Below, piece by piece: positions 156 to 46,806 of a stretch of DNA of 64,000 nt (the first letter of the stretch is position 1; each line of letters opens with the position of its first letter). The notes beneath the pieces were generated by a model, which saw nothing but the letters and a program-made list of their open reading frames with translations, made no database searches and was not told where the DNA came from. The DNA lies in sequence record OP352608; one strand, written 5' to 3'. This stretch comes from Escherichia phage vB_EcoM_SP13. The position numbers and the translations under genes were made by a program.

Positions 156-389
156 TCACAGTTCATCTCCAGATTGCAGAACAAGTCCCGCATAGAGGAT
201 TGCCAAGGCCAAAGGTGCACCACCACCAGCCTCTCTATTCTCTTTGATTTGAAGAGTATCCTTAAGGAATTGCAGCTGAACGTTGAATTCACTTTCAATT
301 CCAAGCACTCTAGCCAATTCTTTTACAGAATCTGCATATGCCTTGTCTAGCACTTCTTTTGGTACTGTTAAGGTTAATTCATTTGCCAT
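156..389 (-). CDS. hypothetical small protein
   Basis: ORF in track; internal ATG at 389 preceded by GGAG; overlaps upstream gene by 11 nt; no recognisable motif. Confidence 0.3.
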   Translation of the reverse strand: MANELTLTVPKEVLDKAYADSVKELARVLGIESEFNVQLQFLKDTLQIKENREAGGGAPLALAILYAGLVLQSGDEL

Positions 390-600
390 TTTCTTTCCAC
401 TCCACAAATGTGTTGCCGCTTGTTTCTCTGTTTAGCAGGTATCTGCCGCGCATCCCATGAAGGCTGAACTCAACCGTCGATGGATTAGATTTTGAAAGCC
501 ATATAGGCTGCCCGTCGAATGGACCGCCTACGCATGTATATTTCGCTTTTGGCTCACTCCTTTTGGGCCGTTTTGCCCGCTCTTTGATTGATAGTCTCAT
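379..600 (-). CDS. hypothetical protein
   Basis: 73-aa ORF, basic N-terminus; ATGA overlap with upstream gene at 600. Confidence 0.3.
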   Translation of the reverse strand: MRLSIKERAKRPKRSEPKAKYTCVGGPFDGQPIWLSKSNPSTVEFSLHGMRGRYLLNRETSGNTFVEWKENGK

Positions 601-815
601 CAGTCTTCACCTTGAGATTCCAGACAAGTAAGGACAAGCCAAGTCATCGGAAGAATCAAAACCAGAGAAATGAGGGACCAGATAGACCAGCACAGGATGA
701 CAGACTTGAATGTGTGAACGTCGCCAAACGCAGCAGTAAAACAGAATCCCATTACAAATGCAATAGCGGTGGAATGGTTGTCTATGGCTTTGATGGCACG
801 GTCGATGAGTTTCAT
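600..815 (-). CDS. small membrane protein (two predicted hydrophobic helices)
   Basis: 71-aa ORF with two long hydrophobic stretches; first gene of a leftward three-gene set. Confidence 0.35.
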   Translation of the reverse strand: MKLIDRAIKAIDNHSTAIAFVMGFCFTAAFGDVHTFKSVILCWSIWSLISLVLILPMTWLVLTCLESQGED

Positions 816-889
816 ATTACCTCCGGTTTTGAGTTAATATGATTATAACGCAGAGTCTCAGAAAGGCAAACTTTTTGTGAATTTTAATC

Positions 890-920
890 AAAAAAAATGG
901 CCAGAAAAAAATCTGGCCGA
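890..920 (-). terminator. stem-loop (GGCCAGA / TCTGGCC) with T-tract on minus strand
   Basis: 7-bp inverted repeat 899-905 / 912-918 flanked by A-run on plus strand (T-run on minus). Confidence 0.3.
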
Positions 921-994
921 AAGATCACCCTTTATCCACTACTAAGCTGGAATCATAATTTTACTTGATATAGCTTGTACAAGCAAACTATAAT

Positions 995-2455
995 ATGAAT
1001 AAAATATTAACACATAATTGGAAATTCATGTACCAGTTGAATCCTGCTTTAAAAGAAGTCTGGAAGACAAAAGCGCGATACAAAGTAATATACGGCGGTC
1101 GTGCATCTTCCAAATCGCACGATGCCGCTGGTTTTGCTATTTATTTGGCGGCAAACTTCAAATTAAAATTCCTTTGCGTTCGACAATTCCAGAACAAAAT
1201 TTCTGAATCTGTATATACTCTATTAAAAGACAAAATAGAGATTTCTGATTTCAAAGATGAGTTCAATTTATTAAAGAACTCTATTGAACATAAAAGAACT
1301 AAATCTGAATTTCTATTTTACGGTATCGCACGTAACGTTGATGAAATTAAATCAACAGAAGGTGTTGACGTCCTTTGGCTGGAAGAAGCGCACGCGCTTA
1401 CTGAAGAACAGTGGGACATTATTGAGCCGACAATCCGTAAAGAAGGGTCCGAAATATGGATCATCTTTAACCCCGATGAAGAGGCCGATTTTGTCTACCA
1501 AAACTTTGTTATGCGACCGCCGAAGAATGCCATTGTTAAAAAGATAAACTGGCAAGACAATCCATTTTTGTCGCAAACGATGCTGGACGTTATTGCAGGC
1601 ATGTACGAGCGCGACCCGAAAAAGGCAGAGCACGTTTATGGCGGCGTGCCGAAGACTGGCGGCGATAAATCTGTAATCAACCGCGCATTCGTTAAGGCCG
1701 CGCTTAATCTCCACAAACACCCTACGCTGGGATGGAGTTTGTCAGGGTCTAACCGTATAGGCTTTGACGTAGCGGACGATGGCGACGACCTTAACGCCAC
1801 TGCATTCGTTACAGGAAACGTATTGCGCGGCATCAAGACATGGGAAGGTCTGGAAGATGAATTGTTAAAATCGGCAAGCGGAGTTTGGAAAGATGCGCTT
1901 ACATTTGGCGCTTCTATAACTTATGACGCCATCGGTGTCGGCGCTTTTGCTGGTTCAAAATTTGATGAACTGAACGAGTATGCAATACATGAAAATCCAT
2001 CATTTCCAAGAATCGAATTTAATGCGTTCAATGCGCAAGGGTCTGTTGATGATCCTGATGACGTTTTTCTTGAATTACCACACGTTGAAATACTCAATAA
2101 AGACCATTTCGCAAACATAAAAGCGCAAAAGTGGACTGAAATTGCAGAGAGATTCAGAAAGACATACGAATATGCAACTGGGCAAGCCGTATATCCGACT
2201 GATGAGTTGATTTCAATCGACACCGATGGCATACCAGAACTTGGAATTCCAGCTTGGACTACTGAAGAGATTGAGACGTTTCTTTTTGAGATGTCAGCGC
2301 CGCGCAAAGATACGTCTGTTCTTGGCAAGTTCAAAGTTGAATCTAAAAAGGATATGGCAAAGCGTGGAGTCAAATCACCTAACAAAGCGGACGCGGCAAT
2401 CATGGCATTAATGAAACCAATCGTTGCAGCATCCGGCTTCTTCTCTAACCTTTAA
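995..2455 (+). CDS. terL: terminase large subunit
   Basis: N-terminal Walker A-like YGGRASSKS after LNPALKE, typical of phage large terminases; 486 aa; sits ahead of portal. Start could instead be ATG 1028 because a TTGATA-N18-TATAAT box abuts ATG 995. Confidence 0.8.
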   Translation: MNKILTHNWKFMYQLNPALKEVWKTKARYKVIYGGRASSKSHDAAGFAIYLAANFKLKFLCVRQFQNKISESVYTLLKDKIEISDFKDEFNLLKNSIEHKRTKSEFLFYGIARNVDEIKSTEGVDVLWLEEAHALTEEQWDIIEPTIRKEGSEIWIIFNPDEEADFVYQNFVMRPPKNAIVKKINWQDNPFLSQTMLDVIAGMYERDPKKAEHVYGGVPKTGGDKSVINRAFVKAALNLHKHPTLGWSLSGSNRIGFDVADDGDDLNATAFVTGNVLRGIKTWEGLEDELLKSASGVWKDALTFGASITYDAIGVGAFAGSKFDELNEYAIHENPSFPRIEFNAFNAQGSVDDPDDVFLELPHVEILNKDHFANIKAQKWTEIAERFRKTYEYATGQAVYPTDELISIDTDGIPELGIPAWTTEEIETFLFEMSAPRKDTSVLGKFKVESKKDMAKRGVKSPNKADAAIMALMKPIVAASGFFSNL

Positions 2456-42981: not shown

Positions 42982-43428
42982 TTAACGGTAGTTAACTAGT
43001 TGCTGATCACCAGAGAAGGTGCAATGATAAACGAATTGTGCGTTATAAAGCAACTGAAAACTTTTCTTTGGTTCATTATTAGAACTCATTGATGTAAAGA
43101 TTTCTGCACCAGAACGGTTTTCACCAATCAGGTTGATAAAGCCGCCAGTTGAACGAGGCTGAACGAAAGTGAAACGTTGCATCCACGGAGTGCGGTTGGC
43201 ACCTTTCCCTGTGAATCCTTGAATCTGAATATTCAGGCCTTCTTGCTCGTTCACACCGATGTAAGTGGTAATTGTTGCGCCAGTCGTTGCTGCAGTCTTG
43301 CCGTCCATCGCTTCGCAATCGTAAACAGCGATTGAATCGGAAGTACGGACAGCGGCTTCAGTCGCTTCCATATACATGGTTCCGAGAATAGCAGTTGCGG
43401 CAAGCGCGATTCCAGTGATTCGTTTCAT
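42982..43428 (-). CDS. secreted protein of unknown function
   Basis: Signal-peptide-like N-terminus MKRITGIALAATAILGTMYMEATEA. Confidence 0.45.
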   Translation of the reverse strand: MKRITGIALAATAILGTMYMEATEAAVRTSDSIAVYDCEAMDGKTAATTGATITTYIGVNEQEGLNIQIQGFTGKGANRTPWMQRFTFVQPRSTGGFINLIGENRSGAEIFTSMSSNNEPKKSFQLLYNAQFVYHCTFSGDQQLVNYR

Positions 43429-43493: not shown

Positions 43494-44489
43494 TTATTTA
43501 TTAGCAATATAAGCAAATTTTTGATAGTTATTTGCTTTGATGAGTTTTTCAACTTCAACAAGGTCATGAGCAACGTCATCAAGCAAAATGTTTCGCCAAG
43601 TAGCAAAGCGACCGACACTAAATACGTTCAAATCCATGGTCAGCTGTAGGAGTAGAGCGTGTCGCAAGTCTTTCGGAATGTCGACAATCTTGCCATACTT
43701 CTGGTCGACCTTTTCAACTTCTTCGAGATCGATGTCACTCCATGATAGGCCAAAGGCTGTCAATACTTCGTCAACTTCTGCACGCAACTTAATGTCACGG
43801 TAACGAGTAATGCCGCCAGCGGCTTCAACTGCGGCTTCACTTACGCTAACCAAAGGAATTGTTTCAATGATCAGTGTGTCACCAGTGATTGATGCGCGGT
43901 AAGTTCTGACGGAGTAGTCAGGAAAGTAAATGGTTTGATACAGTGCACACTTGCGCTTAATCTTAAAGCGGTAAACACGAATGTTTGCCTTATCGAATGA
44001 GAAATCAATCTTTTGATCAATCCCAGCAAGCTTCATCATGACTGGCAGCGGCGACGTGTTGATGATTGGCGTCTCGCTATAGCCGCAAAGAGTATCAACA
44101 GGAGTATTAAAGAATATGCGGTCACCCAGTTTGTCGACAAGCTGATCATAAAAGTCATCAGGCGCAATATAACGCGTTGCAGTTTTAAGCTTCATGATTG
44201 AGCGGCTACCGAATTGATTAGTGACCTTCATGGAATACATATTGGCAAGGTTGATTGGGCAATGGTCGTGGTAGTAGTTGCCGCGAAAATACACAGCCTT
44301 GTCAACTGTCACGGCCTTAAAAGGGATTCCGGTAATACGGCTTACTTCTTCGCCGCGAAATCGTAGCAAAGCCTTGTGCTGTGGCGCTCGTTCCCCTGCT
44401 TCGTACACAATGGAGTTCGGGAAGTGACACGCGGTAATAAGTCCTGCCAAACCGCCGCCGATAATCATTACAGGTTGTTTCATGTTCAT
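43494..44489 (-). CDS. FAD/NAD(P)-binding oxidoreductase
   Basis: N-terminal Rossmann dinucleotide-binding motif VMIIGGGLAGL; 331 aa; function unknown. Confidence 0.5.
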   Translation of the reverse strand: MNMKQPVMIIGGGLAGLITACHFPNSIVYEAGERAPQHKALLRFRGEEVSRITGIPFKAVTVDKAVYFRGNYYHDHCPINLANMYSMKVTNQFGSRSIMKLKTATRYIAPDDFYDQLVDKLGDRIFFNTPVDTLCGYSETPIINTSPLPVMMKLAGIDQKIDFSFDKANIRVYRFKIKRKCALYQTIYFPDYSVRTYRASITGDTLIIETIPLVSVSEAAVEAAGGITRYRDIKLRAEVDEVLTAFGLSWSDIDLEEVEKVDQKYGKIVDIPKDLRHALLLQLTMDLNVFSVGRFATWRNILLDDVAHDLVEVEKLIKANNYQKFAYIANK

Positions 44490-44622
44490 TTGTCCTTTGT
44501 GGGTGATATGAGAAGTATAATAGCTAAATTATTTTACAGCAACAAGTCATTTCTATTTAGTACAGACGAAAAAGACCCACAACAAGTGTGGGTCAATTAC
44601 CGCTATATAACCGTCCTACAGG

Positions 44623-45462
44623 TTATTCCGCTTGATCACCGTCTTCGGCATTGTCGTTGGATTCAACATCGACAAACTCGATGTGGCCCATCTCTTCCAG
44701 CTTGCTCAGGTAGGAGCGAACGGAAGCGCCAAACAGTTGATCTTTAACTTTTTCGCCCAGCTCATCGATAGACTGCGCCACGCCAACTTCGCCTTCTTTG
44801 ATCGCCGCCAGAACGCGTCCACGGGTGGAATGCTCTTGCGGCTGGCTCAGGCCATTGCCGGTGTAGATGAAGTGAGTGGCTTTTGCACGACGCTGACCGT
44901 TTGCCTTTTTAGCAGCCTTGCGCTCTGCGATGGCTTTGCGACGTTCTTCAGCTTCTTTCTTACGCTGTTCTTTCTGCTGTTCTGCAGCTTCTTTAGCCGC
45001 AATCTTAGCAGCTTCACGCTCTGCCTTGCGTTTCGCTTTAGCTTCTTCTTTGGCCTTCTCTTTTTCGGCCTTCGCTGCAGCACGGGCTTGATCACGCTCT
45101 GCTTTCTTGGCCGCAGCCTGCTCAGCTTTCAGGCGCTTGGCTTCTTCTTTAGCCTTTGCCTTTTCGATTTCTTTTGCTGCTTTAGCGGCTTCACGCTCTG
45201 CTTTCTTAGCAGCAGCCTTTTCTGCACGCTCTTTAGCTTTCTTAGCTGCTTCTTCAGCACGCTTCTGCGCCTTCTCATCAGCAGCCTGCTTGCGTTTCAG
45301 CGCAGCTTCTTCACGCTTGGCTTGTTTTTCCTGCTCACGCTTCTGGCGCTTCTCTTCGGCTTCTTTCTTTTTAGCCAGGCGTTTTTCTTCAGCCACGCGA
45401 CGACGTTCTGCTGCGGCTGCTTGTTTTTCTTCTTTAGATAATACTTTGATTGCTTCGGCCAT
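44623..45462 (-). CDS. highly charged K/A/E-rich protein with globular C-terminal domain
   Basis: About 190 aa of KAE-rich low-complexity repeats (AKKAKERAEKAAAKKAERE...) then a 70-aa non-repetitive C-terminus; AAGGA RBS before ATG 45462. Confidence 0.5.
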   Translation of the reverse strand: MAEAIKVLSKEEKQAAAAERRRVAEEKRLAKKKEAEEKRQKREQEKQAKREEAALKRKQAADEKAQKRAEEAAKKAKERAEKAAAKKAEREAAKAAKEIEKAKAKEEAKRLKAEQAAAKKAERDQARAAAKAEKEKAKEEAKAKRKAEREAAKIAAKEAAEQQKEQRKKEAEERRKAIAERKAAKKANGQRRAKATHFIYTGNGLSQPQEHSTRGRVLAAIKEGEVGVAQSIDELGEKVKDQLFGASVRSYLSKLEEMGHIEFVDVESNDNAEDGDQAE

Positions 45463-45621
45463 ATTCACAGTCCTTAAATAAATTAGTTTATTTTATATTC
45501 CCCGTTTGGGATAACTTAATTATGCCTTCAGTTGCCGCCAGTAGCAACTAAAAACTATGGCGGCAATGCCACTTTAATTAAACTGATTTTCAGTTTTATT
45601 TTTCGTAAATTTACGTCAACA

Positions 45622-46806
45622 TTAACGCGCTTTCAAATCACGGTACACGGTCAGATTCTTCTTAGCACGGGTGATAGCGGTGTACATCATCTTGGAGTAC
45701 GGAACGCCGCGCAAGATTTCTTCCAGCACGCACACATTATCCCACTCGCTGCCTTGCGATTTGTGCACCGTGATGACATAGCCATAGTCCATCCCGCCAA
45801 CAGCGCGTTGCGCTTCTTTGCGCACTTCCTGATCAGTAGAGAAGGAAAGAGGATTGATCTTCACCTTTATATCTTTACCATCAGTTAATGAACGCAAGTT
45901 GACATACATTATTTCATTCGACTCATCTTCATCCCTTTCAAAGTCCGGCACTGGCTCATAGCTAATAACAATCCCTTGCTCGCCATTACAGAATCCTGGA
46001 CCGTGTTGGTTGAATGTGCAAATAACCTTCTCGCCGATTCCTGGCATTGGCGTTATACGTCCGCTCACTTGCCGTAATAATGAATTCCATTTATCTTTGG
46101 TGCTATTATAGGAGCAAATAATTTGATCATCTTCGCCCATGAATTTCTTCAATGCAGTAACGCGCGGCGATTCTGCCAATACTTTGACGTCATCGTATTC
46201 ACGCGGGGGAAGGCGGTTGCCTTGGCGCACGAAGAAGGAGGCGCGGATTATATTGGACTCTTTCCCTTGCCGCATGATTTCGGTTAACAGCACGTCAACG
46301 GCATCTTCAGTAAAGTAGGCGGCGGCTTTTACCGGAGGGACTTGTCCAATGTCGCCTAATGCCAGGACAGGGATGCGGTGATCAAGAAGGCGCTCTGTGT
46401 CCCACTCGCCAACCATCGACGCTTCATCGAGTACAACAAGGTGCGGCCTTTCATCCAGCTTTGACTTTCTCGAAAAGATTGGCTCATTGTCGTCATTTAC
46501 GCCGCGCACGTTATAGATGAACTGGTGAAGGGTCTTAGCGCCACGACAGCCTTTTTGCTTTAATCGGCTTGCAGCCTTTCCGGTCGGCGCAATATAGATA
46601 GCTCCATACTCACCGACACAACGGCGCACAATCTCGCGAGCAATAGAGGTTTTACCAGTCCCTGCATAGCCAGCGATGAAAAACACGCGCTTCGTCGTTT
46701 TACCGTCCTGCAATCGCTTGTACCATGCAACGGCTTTCTCGATGGCGTCGATTTGTTGCGCGTTAAACTGAATCACTGGCTCATCATTAAATTCTGGAAT
46801 GTTCAT
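45622..46806 (-). CDS. Dda/RecD-like SF1 DNA helicase
   Basis: Walker A AGYAGTGKT, Walker B VVLDEASMV, C-terminal VITVHKSQGSEWDNV and TAITRAK motifs. Confidence 0.7.
   Translation of the reverse strand: MNIPEFNDEPVIQFNAQQIDAIEKAVAWYKRLQDGKTTKRVFFIAGYAGTGKTSIAREIVRRCVGEYGAIYIAPTGKAASRLKQKGCRGAKTLHQFIYNVRGVNDDNEPIFSRKSKLDERPHLVVLDEASMVGEWDTERLLDHRIPVLALGDIGQVPPVKAAAYFTEDAVDVLLTEIMRQGKESNIIRASFFVRQGNRLPPREYDDVKVLAESPRVTALKKFMGEDDQIICSYNSTKDKWNSLLRQVSGRITPMPGIGEKVICTFNQHGPGFCNGEQGIVISYEPVPDFERDEDESNEIMYVNLRSLTDGKDIKVKINPLSFSTDQEVRKEAQRAVGGMDYGYVITVHKSQGSEWDNVCVLEEILRGVPYSKMMYTAITRAKKNLTVYRDLKAR

Follow-up and report, generated by a model that had tools for sequence, protein, structure and literature searches.

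The gene and its three-part product

The 64,000-nucleotide stretch of Escherichia phage vB_EcoM_SP13 that was analysed here (sequence record OP352608, hereafter the window) carries on its minus strand, at 44623..45462, a gene for a protein of 279 amino acids (followed by the stop codon) that belongs to family phrog_4765. All orthologs examined, from at least eight phage groups, share the same three-part plan: a charged N-terminal region, an RRxKATH motif with a domain of about 77 amino acids, and an acidic tail. In structure models the charged region is predicted to be a rigid rod of about 26 nm, made of one alpha-helix without a hydrophobic seam. No named family in the searched libraries of profiles and sets of structures matched this architecture of winged helix, polar hendecad helix with a basic seam and acidic tail.

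Over 4.5 kb the stretch is 100% identical to Escherichia phage F13 (OP745617, genus Wifcevirus), and it is 95–98% identical to phages WFC, WFH and FEC19 and to the BASEL phages Bas98–101. The gene, taken from the list of open reading frames, is the same as F13_0088, which is annotated as “hypothetical protein”, and the paper describing the BASEL phages does not discuss it. Its product has a mass of 31.1 kDa and a pI of 9.7. Translation starts at the ATG at 45462, which is preceded at a distance of 8 nt by a Shine-Dalgarno sequence read off the DNA, AAGGA (45471..45475, minus strand). An alternative in-frame GTG at 45468 was rejected, because only 2 nt separate it from AAGGA. The plus strand has an overlapping open reading frame of 269 amino acids (44632..45441), which was discarded as an antisense shadow of the low-complexity codons, since only the minus frame agrees with the pattern of substitutions.

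The original prediction, which was made from the letters of the DNA, had placed this reading frame correctly and had divided its product into some 190 residues rich in lysine, alanine and glutamate and a small C-terminal domain. The division holds. Residues 1–190 consist to 93% of K, R, E, D, A and Q (K 24%, A 30%, E 21%, R 11%, Q 6%, D 1%), include 6% hydrophobic residues and one Gly/Pro, and carry a net charge of +25. The description of this part as repeats is right for its composition and its periodicity; it does not extend to tandem repeats in the DNA of the gene, where TRF returned only a 15-bp × 2 array.

A charged helix with a basic seam

An AlphaFold2 (AF2) model of the full protein, built from an alignment of 21 sequences, shows residues 10–186 (44905..45435, minus strand) as a single unbroken alpha-helix of 177 residues, about 26.5 nm long, with a predicted local distance difference test (pLDDT) score above 90 over most of its length. 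Fourier analysis and tables of hendecad positions resolve this segment into about 17 polar hendecads. Lysine and arginine recur in it with a period of 3.64–3.70 residues (11/3 = 3.67) in 18 of 18 homologs, with z scores of 10–17 against shuffled sequences. The K/R spectral peak of the F13 protein lies at T=3.68 and reaches P=17.7, against a maximum of 9.9 among 200 shuffles (z ~14). The phase of glutamate and aspartate is offset from that of K/R by 150–180 degrees, which places them on the opposite face of the helix.

When the sequence is laid out in rows of 11, the register is kept across about 17 repeats. Hendecad positions 2, 5 and 9 are K/R in 54%, 53% and 70% of cases and E/D in 2%, 5% and 1% (15 homologs), so that the seam runs through positions 2, 5/6 and 9. 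In hendecad coiled coils the core is built from these positions (a, d/e and h); here they are positively charged. The phase of the seam relative to RRxKATH is conserved over at least 165 residues, with resultant lengths of R=0.78, 0.64 and 0.61 in three successive windows of 55 residues. On the model, lysine and arginine are expected to line up in a single unbroken basic stripe, with no more than about one turn over the length of the rod. This arrangement of charged faces is common to every ortholog examined, in Wifcevirus, Pbunavirus and at least six other phage groups.

The helix is unlike a conventional coiled coil. No hydrophobic periodicity of 3.5 residues was found in it; the residues LIVMFWY make up 3–8% of the region and their periodicity is inconsistent, and the spectral power of alanine is weak and its phase variable. 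A heptad or other conventional coiled coil was therefore rejected, as neither hydrophobic residues nor alanine form a consistent seam at 3.5 or 3.67. The original prediction of a single alpha-helix agrees with the helix that AF2 models at residues 10–186 and with the missing hydrophobic periodicity. The protein shares with ER/K single alpha-helices (SAHs) and (EAAAK)n linkers a composition rich in A, E, K and R, core positions (heptad or hendecad) free of hydrophobic residues, and a prediction of one long isolated helix. It is, however, no textbook ER/K helix, because E(i)→K(i+4) pairs are not enriched: their counts equal the shuffle expectation in eight of nine orthologs (z −1.3 to +0.7; Serratia phage SMP, +2.1). 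Some i+3 pairs and K→E i+4 pairs are mildly enriched. SAHs interleave E and K at i/i+4 and have a charge period of about 6–9 residues, whereas the phage helix segregates like charges with a period of 3.68; and SAHs normally join two domains, whereas one end of the phage helix is free.

An 11/3 periodicity over many repeats, together with richness in K, A and E, is also known from group 3 LEA proteins, apolipoproteins and alpha-synuclein, and the phage protein resembles group 3 LEA proteins (LEA_4) in its 11-mers, with a K/R period of 3.67–3.70 over about 17 repeats. The helices of those proteins have a hydrophobic face flanked by lysine, in contrast to the basic and acidic faces of the phage helix, which has no consistent apolar or alanine stripe. 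A hendecad period is a common mark of helices that rest on flat surfaces, and with its continuous basic seam the helix might lie flat on the anionic inner membrane and anchor phage DNA or the replisome there through the winged helix. We regard such a membrane-surface tether as quite improbable, since the protein offers neither a hydrophobic face (LIVMFWY being scarce, and the alanine phase weak and variable) nor a transmembrane segment; searches of it for the Pfam LEA_4 and apolipoprotein profiles and for an apolar (Ala/Thr) stripe were negative.

Another use of the two faces would be self-assembly. The K/R and E/D faces are about 165–180 degrees apart and complementary, and rods could stack side by side through them into sheets, filaments or a condensate, which would organise the site of replication and to which the winged helix would recruit DNA. 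A precedent is KfrA of IncP-1 and IncU plasmids, in which a small DNA-binding head is followed by a very long Ala-rich alpha-helical tail; proteins of this type form higher-order structures such as filaments (PMC7821693, PMC7783346). KfrA and the phage protein have in common a DNA-binding-type head, a long Ala-rich helix and a mobile element as their origin. The head of KfrA is N-terminal, however, and its tail is an oligomerising heptad coiled coil, whereas the head of the phage protein is C-terminal and its helix is polar and of the 11/3 type. The Pfam profile KfrA_N (PF11740) gave no match to the phage protein, the helix lacks a hydrophobic seam and the AF2 model is that of a monomer only, and a scaffold of this kind seems improbable to us.

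The charged region varies in length and charge between orthologs. It spans 103–263 amino acids, is always rich in K, R, E and A (15–28% Glu in the helix) and always has a positive net charge, which ranges from +2 to +25; the pI of the whole protein ranges from 5.6 to 9.7. These values do not fit the earlier proposal of a histone-like, DNA-condensing polycation. A second proposal, a spacer or molecular ruler, is at odds with the range of lengths between genera and with the lack, in most orthologs, of a second domain on the N-terminal side of the helix. As to a ruler, Pseudomonas phage NP3 (Pbunavirus, KU198331; ortholog at 201..1007 of locus L028) is viable with an in-frame deletion of 26 residues inside the helix. 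The deletion lies between two AEKAK repeats and amounts to 7.09 hendecad turns, so that it nearly preserves the phase; it is a single case and thus anecdotal.

A second metagenomic family (P0039, P0048) has a K/A/E helix with a K/R period of 3.64–3.69, joined to a different small C-terminal domain (…QNG.TRP…QYA.W+.F.G…). Judged by these sequences, the hendecad helix with a basic seam may be a reusable module. A literature search found no paper that joins hendecads with phage, lysine and DNA-binding.

The winged-helix domain, its linker and the acidic tail

The helix leads into the motif RRAKATH (residues 191–197; 44872..44892, minus strand), a near-invariant basic linker that runs into strand 1 of the domain, a beta-strand. 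One alignment (A1) shows no variation in either the RR pair or the TH pair; in another (A3) the same holds for R192, and R191 and T196 are almost invariant. Counted from the linker, the C-terminal domain comprises residues 191–266 (44665..44892, minus strand), about 76 non-repetitive amino acids with a net charge of −1 and the topology beta-alpha-beta-alpha-alpha-beta; its putative recognition helix is VRSYLSKLEE (248–257). In the AF2 model of the full protein residues 197–264 have pLDDT values of 93–97 and follow a short Gly-containing linker. For the fold searches the domain was modelled separately. Foldseek agrees weakly with a winged helix, and its matches include Pol III C34 and histone H1.0 (E 4.7 for H1.0). 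On the models, the domain has the fold of a winged helix, a compact bundle of three helices with a wing of beta-sheet that can be superimposed on known domains of this type. The small C-terminal domain that the original prediction had expected is thus supported by model and fold search alike, in a form that fits its idea of a nucleic-acid-binding protein.

Neither Pfam nor NCBIfam, scanned with the full protein and with its C-terminal part, yielded a significant match; a profile search against PDB sequences was empty, and a fold search of BFVD returned only uncharacterised members of the family itself. The domain also matches the insert domain of type-2 methionine aminopeptidase, Ebp1 and Arx1, at 6–16% identity; theirs is inserted in a peptidase fold, and the resemblance most likely reflects convergence or a very remote relationship, so that no common function is implied.

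The invariant residues of the domain and its linker are R192, Q209, S212, R214, G227, R249, K254 and L255, with R191, T196 and P208 nearly invariant. Among them are basic residues ahead of strand 1, at the beginning of helix 1 and within helix 3, a distribution that hints at a phosphate-binding surface. The invariance of R192, R214, R249 and K254 is the only support, and an indirect one, for placing the protein in the functional class of DNA-binding winged helices.

Linker histones H1/H5 combine similar elements, namely a winged-helix globular domain of about 75–80 amino acids and a K/A-rich extension of at least 100 amino acids, which is thought to present basic residues to DNA. The order of the two is reversed in the phage protein. 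The H1/H5 extension is a Pro/Lys-rich disordered polycation, whereas that of the phage protein is modelled as a pre-formed polyampholyte helix with 21% Glu; and the phage family differs further in that it is not consistently basic (pI 5.6–9.7) and has an acidic tail. The Pfam profile Linker_histone (H15) did not match the phage protein at E ≤ 10.

The tail (residues 267–279, ESNDNAEDGDQAE; 44626..44664, minus strand) is predicted to be disordered, with low pLDDT, and has a net charge of −6. Orthologs have tails of 1–48 amino acids, and most of the remote relatives described below have short D/E-rich ends. Where the tail of a homolog could be cleanly delimited, its net charge is −2 to −16, with the one exception of P0010, in which a single Glu comes after the domain. 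A DNA-binding core followed by a disordered acidic C-terminal tail is the plan of the single-stranded DNA-binding protein (SSB) of E. coli, T4 gp32, T7 gp2.5 and HMGB1. The phage protein shares the tail of these systems and, like the SSB-type ones, is encoded among replication genes, in this case beside a helicase. Its core differs from theirs, being a predicted winged helix where they have an OB fold or an HMG box.

Selection, distribution and database labels

Low-complexity regions are usually presumed free to evolve. Among five Wifcevirus genomes, the N-terminal 190 codons of the gene have up to 20 synonymous differences against 0–1 non-synonymous ones and no indels, which gives a dN/dS of 0–0.03; for the whole coding sequence the ratio is 0–0.2. 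The adjoining gene for a Dda-like helicase has a dN/dS of 0.00–0.02. The low-complexity region is therefore not a freely drifting spacer, as its constraint matches that of the helicase.

The phrog_4765 profile, whose function is unassigned, matches residues 1–279 with an E value of 1e-83, and the C-terminal 97 amino acids alone with 5e-47. With these 97 amino acids tblastn found homologs in 356 phage records. The great majority (293 of 356) are from Pseudomonas phages, essentially all of them Pbunavirus or PB1-like, and the others include Wifcevirus, Serratia (Myosmarvirus), Burkholderia BcepF1, Xanthomonas FoX7, Pantoea PA1, Salmonella PCSE1 and Aeromonas Gekk3-15. When 1.84 billion cluster representatives were scanned exhaustively with HMMER, only 46 matched at E < 1e-3. 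A single-sequence, word-indexed search with the C-terminal domain returned only two proteins, and a profile search 12. The family is thus small, and all of its members of traced origin come from phage genomes or phage-like metagenomic contigs.

Some members bear functional labels. The gene is annotated as TolA-like in FEC19, Epa phages, Ro157lw and others, which would make its product an envelope-spanning protein. The likeness to domain II of E. coli TolA is one of K/A/E-rich helical composition only. BLASTP against E. coli TolA gave E=0.18, and no match when the SEG low-complexity filter was applied; the phage protein has no transmembrane anchor (maximum Kyte-Doolittle value in a 19-residue window of 0.61, against 2.45 in TolA) and no match to TolA domain III or any other Pfam family; and TolA domain II lacks the K/R period of 3.68 (P=2.1 against 17.7). 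Similarity, anchor and periodicity refute an identity with TolA at the sequence level, and we give this annotation practically no chance of being right.

Many records, mainly of Pbunavirus, call the product a “putative structural protein”, and it might accordingly be a virion protein, structural or internal to the head, that is packaged with the DNA. This label traces to ORF66 of phage LBL3 (FM201281; 663..1547 of locus L024), whose note “putative cell wall associated hydrolase” is a similarity guess and likely a low-complexity false positive. The sister records PB1, 14-1 and SN label the gene hypothetical, and the gene lies in the replication and not in the morphogenesis module. The protein is absent from the mass-spectrometry list of the virion of Pbunavirus SCUT-S1, which is weak evidence, because trypsin cuts the K/R-rich part into very small peptides; and the main text of the Pa193 virion atlas makes no mention of the ortholog gp84. 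A virion protein is very improbable on these grounds.

Both labels, “TolA” and “structural protein”, appear to be artefacts of composition and not established functions. The low-complexity helix itself is present in every ortholog examined (Wifcevirus, Pbunavirus and six further groups) and is replaced only in remote metagenomic relatives. On both counts, the annotation of homologs and the constancy of the charged region, the family thus gives no grounds for abandoning the original prediction of an unusual charged protein.

Genomic context and remote relatives

The neighbors named in the original prediction were identified correctly. The upstream neighbor, at 45622..46806 on the minus strand, encodes the Dda-like SF1 helicase (Pfam AAA_30 and UvrD_C_2, and synteny), and the gene follows directly 3′ of it in every examined phage that has a K/A/E-type protein. 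The downstream neighbor, at 43494..44489 on the minus strand, encodes a Rossmann-like protein of 331 amino acids with a GxGxxG motif, which belongs to phrog_4828 (PHROG E 4e-148). In seven of nine loci the gene is followed by phrog_4828 (about 315–333 amino acids), ThyX and a PNKP-type phosphatase/kinase; phrog_4828 does not adjoin it in BcepF1 and in the P0009 contig. The order of the module is RepB-type primase and Dda helicase, the gene itself, phrog_4828, ThyX, PNKP, SDR, an exonuclease and a polymerase of the PolIII-alpha type. The gene holds a fixed slot in this deeply conserved module of replication and nucleotide metabolism.

The 331-aa phrog_4828 protein had no match in Pfam, NCBIfam or PDB sequences. 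Its N-terminal GxGxxG dinucleotide-binding motif and its position, always 5′ of ThyX, were noted, and by sequence it is a deeply conserved candidate flavoenzyme of the replication and nucleotide module. Between it and ThyX lies an open reading frame of 148 amino acids (42982..43428, minus strand) with a signal-peptide-like N-terminus (MKRITGIALAATAILG...) and no Pfam or PHROG match; an exported product would be odd within a replication module.

Signals for transcription were found on both sides of the gene. A strong intrinsic terminator identified by a scan lies immediately 3′ of it (44564..44594, minus strand), with an 8-bp stem (GACCCACA/TGTGGGTC) followed by a T-run. Equivalent terminators stand 3′ of the orthologs in JG024 and PCSE1, and terminators are annotated at the same place in WFH and LBL3. 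The intergenic region 5′ of the gene is 159 nt long, and a gap of about 110–160 nt is present there in all annotated genera. It contains candidate sigma-70-like promoters, among them TTGCTA-17-CATAAT (45519..45547, minus strand), found by a scan as matches to the consensus only. A weak terminator-like hairpin was also seen in this gap, just past the stop codon of the helicase gene (45557..45572, minus strand). The hairpin and promoter-like sites in the gap suggest that the gene may form its own transcription unit.

A remote metagenomic subfamily (P0036–P0047; 62 clusters) keeps the basic linker and the winged-helix domain, and most of its members the short acidic end, while the K/A/E helix is replaced by an unrelated N-terminal domain of about 60 amino acids. 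The order of genes around these relatives is RepB-type primase and DUF932, the winged-helix protein, phrog_4828, ThyX, PNKP, SDR, an RNase T-like exonuclease and a PolIII-alpha polymerase. The phrog_4828 protein is 40% identical to the product of the gene 3′ of the remote relative P0046, and in remote relatives the two genes frequently overlap by 4 bp. Pfam and PHROG scans of the remote relatives found no named family, and all 62 matches of the subfamily are “hypothetical”. Because the remote relatives occupy the same slot of the same module, the winged-helix protein is to be seen as an ancient core gene of that module, and the hendecad helix as a lineage-specific N-terminal elaboration, strictly maintained.

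Two contigs of uncultured phages, L029 (43.7 kb) and L031 (31 kb), share the order of the whole F13 module. In L029, as in two shorter contigs (L018 and L030), a DUF932 protein takes the position of Dda; L031 has neither of the two there.

The pairing with phrog_4828, which is kept in remote relatives together with the 4-bp overlaps, would suit a protein–protein adaptor, whose winged helix binds the phrog_4828 enzyme, Dda or the polymerase and whose helix is a stiff spacer or electrostatic arm; its ligand would then not be nucleic acid. The SAH-like composition and the single helix of the AF2 model agree with such a role. In most orthologs, however, a spacer would have nothing to hold at its N-terminal end, and in BcepF1 and the P0009 contig phrog_4828 is not beside the gene. 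An inert spacer, moreover, needs neither a phase-conserved basic seam nor purifying selection at the level of residues. We consider an adaptor unlikely.

A possible role at the replisome

The reading that we tentatively favor, as a possibility short of an even chance, is that of an accessory protein of the replication module that acts at the phage replisome, or close to it, and has nucleic acid or a different linear polyanion as its ligand. Its anchor on DNA would be the winged helix together with the RRxK linker, and the basic seam would run along the phosphate backbone in an extended electrostatic contact that does not depend on register. With its acidic face turned outward, the protein would coat or tether DNA and not condense it. 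The acidic tail might fold back onto the basic surfaces, as auto-inhibition, or dock a partner at the replisome. The acidic C-terminal tails of SSB, T4 gp32, T7 gp2.5 and HMGB1 are the precedent for both.

The observations that we count in favor of such an accessory protein are the three-part architecture, the phase-conserved seam, the selection on it, the fold, the replication context and the widespread acidic tails. To these is added that no SSB is annotated in the curated genome of Bas99 (PQ850618), and that a PHROG scan of 10 unassigned open reading frames of the window, as candidates, found none. The phage nonetheless has genes for a polymerase and an exonuclease, for helicases and two primases, and for a ligase.

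Several points weigh against a role in nucleic acid binding. The protein has no sequence-profile match to a named helix-turn-helix or winged-helix family in Pfam, NCBIfam or PDB sequences. Its helix is a polyampholyte whose net charge is as low as +2 to +5 in certain orthologs, and a pI of 5.6 is possible; one would not usually expect this of a protein that binds DNA non-specifically. A straight alpha-helix is unable to follow the groove of B-DNA, so that the geometry of the contact is a guess. Finally, the order of the genes may reflect the common descent of the module and not functional coupling.

A more specific proposal, which we hold to be rather unlikely, is that the protein represents a new class of non-OB factors that coat or organise DNA at the replisome, in a supergroup of phages without a recognisable SSB. 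The 26-nm rod would then lay its K/R seam along about 40 nt of extended single-stranded DNA, or along duplex DNA, with the winged helix as its anchor, and the acidic tail would recruit Dda and the polymerase of the PolIII-alpha type. If this were true, the polar hendecad helix with a basic seam would be a previously undescribed nucleic-acid-binding module, maybe shared with P0039 and P0048.

The helix is a clean natural example of a functional charged helix with segregated faces, in which the 11/3 register is unbroken over about 170 residues. The gene that encodes it belongs to the core of the replication module in Pbunavirus, Wifcevirus and at least six related genera, where it is conserved at the level of residues; Pbunavirus is among the Pseudomonas aeruginosa phages most used in personalised therapy. 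Should the seam not bind nucleic acid, its product would be a hypothetical phage protein of the ordinary kind, if tidy in its architecture. If the seam does bind nucleic acid, the accessory protein that we favor would bring a new DNA- or RNA-binding element to light and would fill a gap in the organisation of phage replisomes of the PolIII-alpha type.

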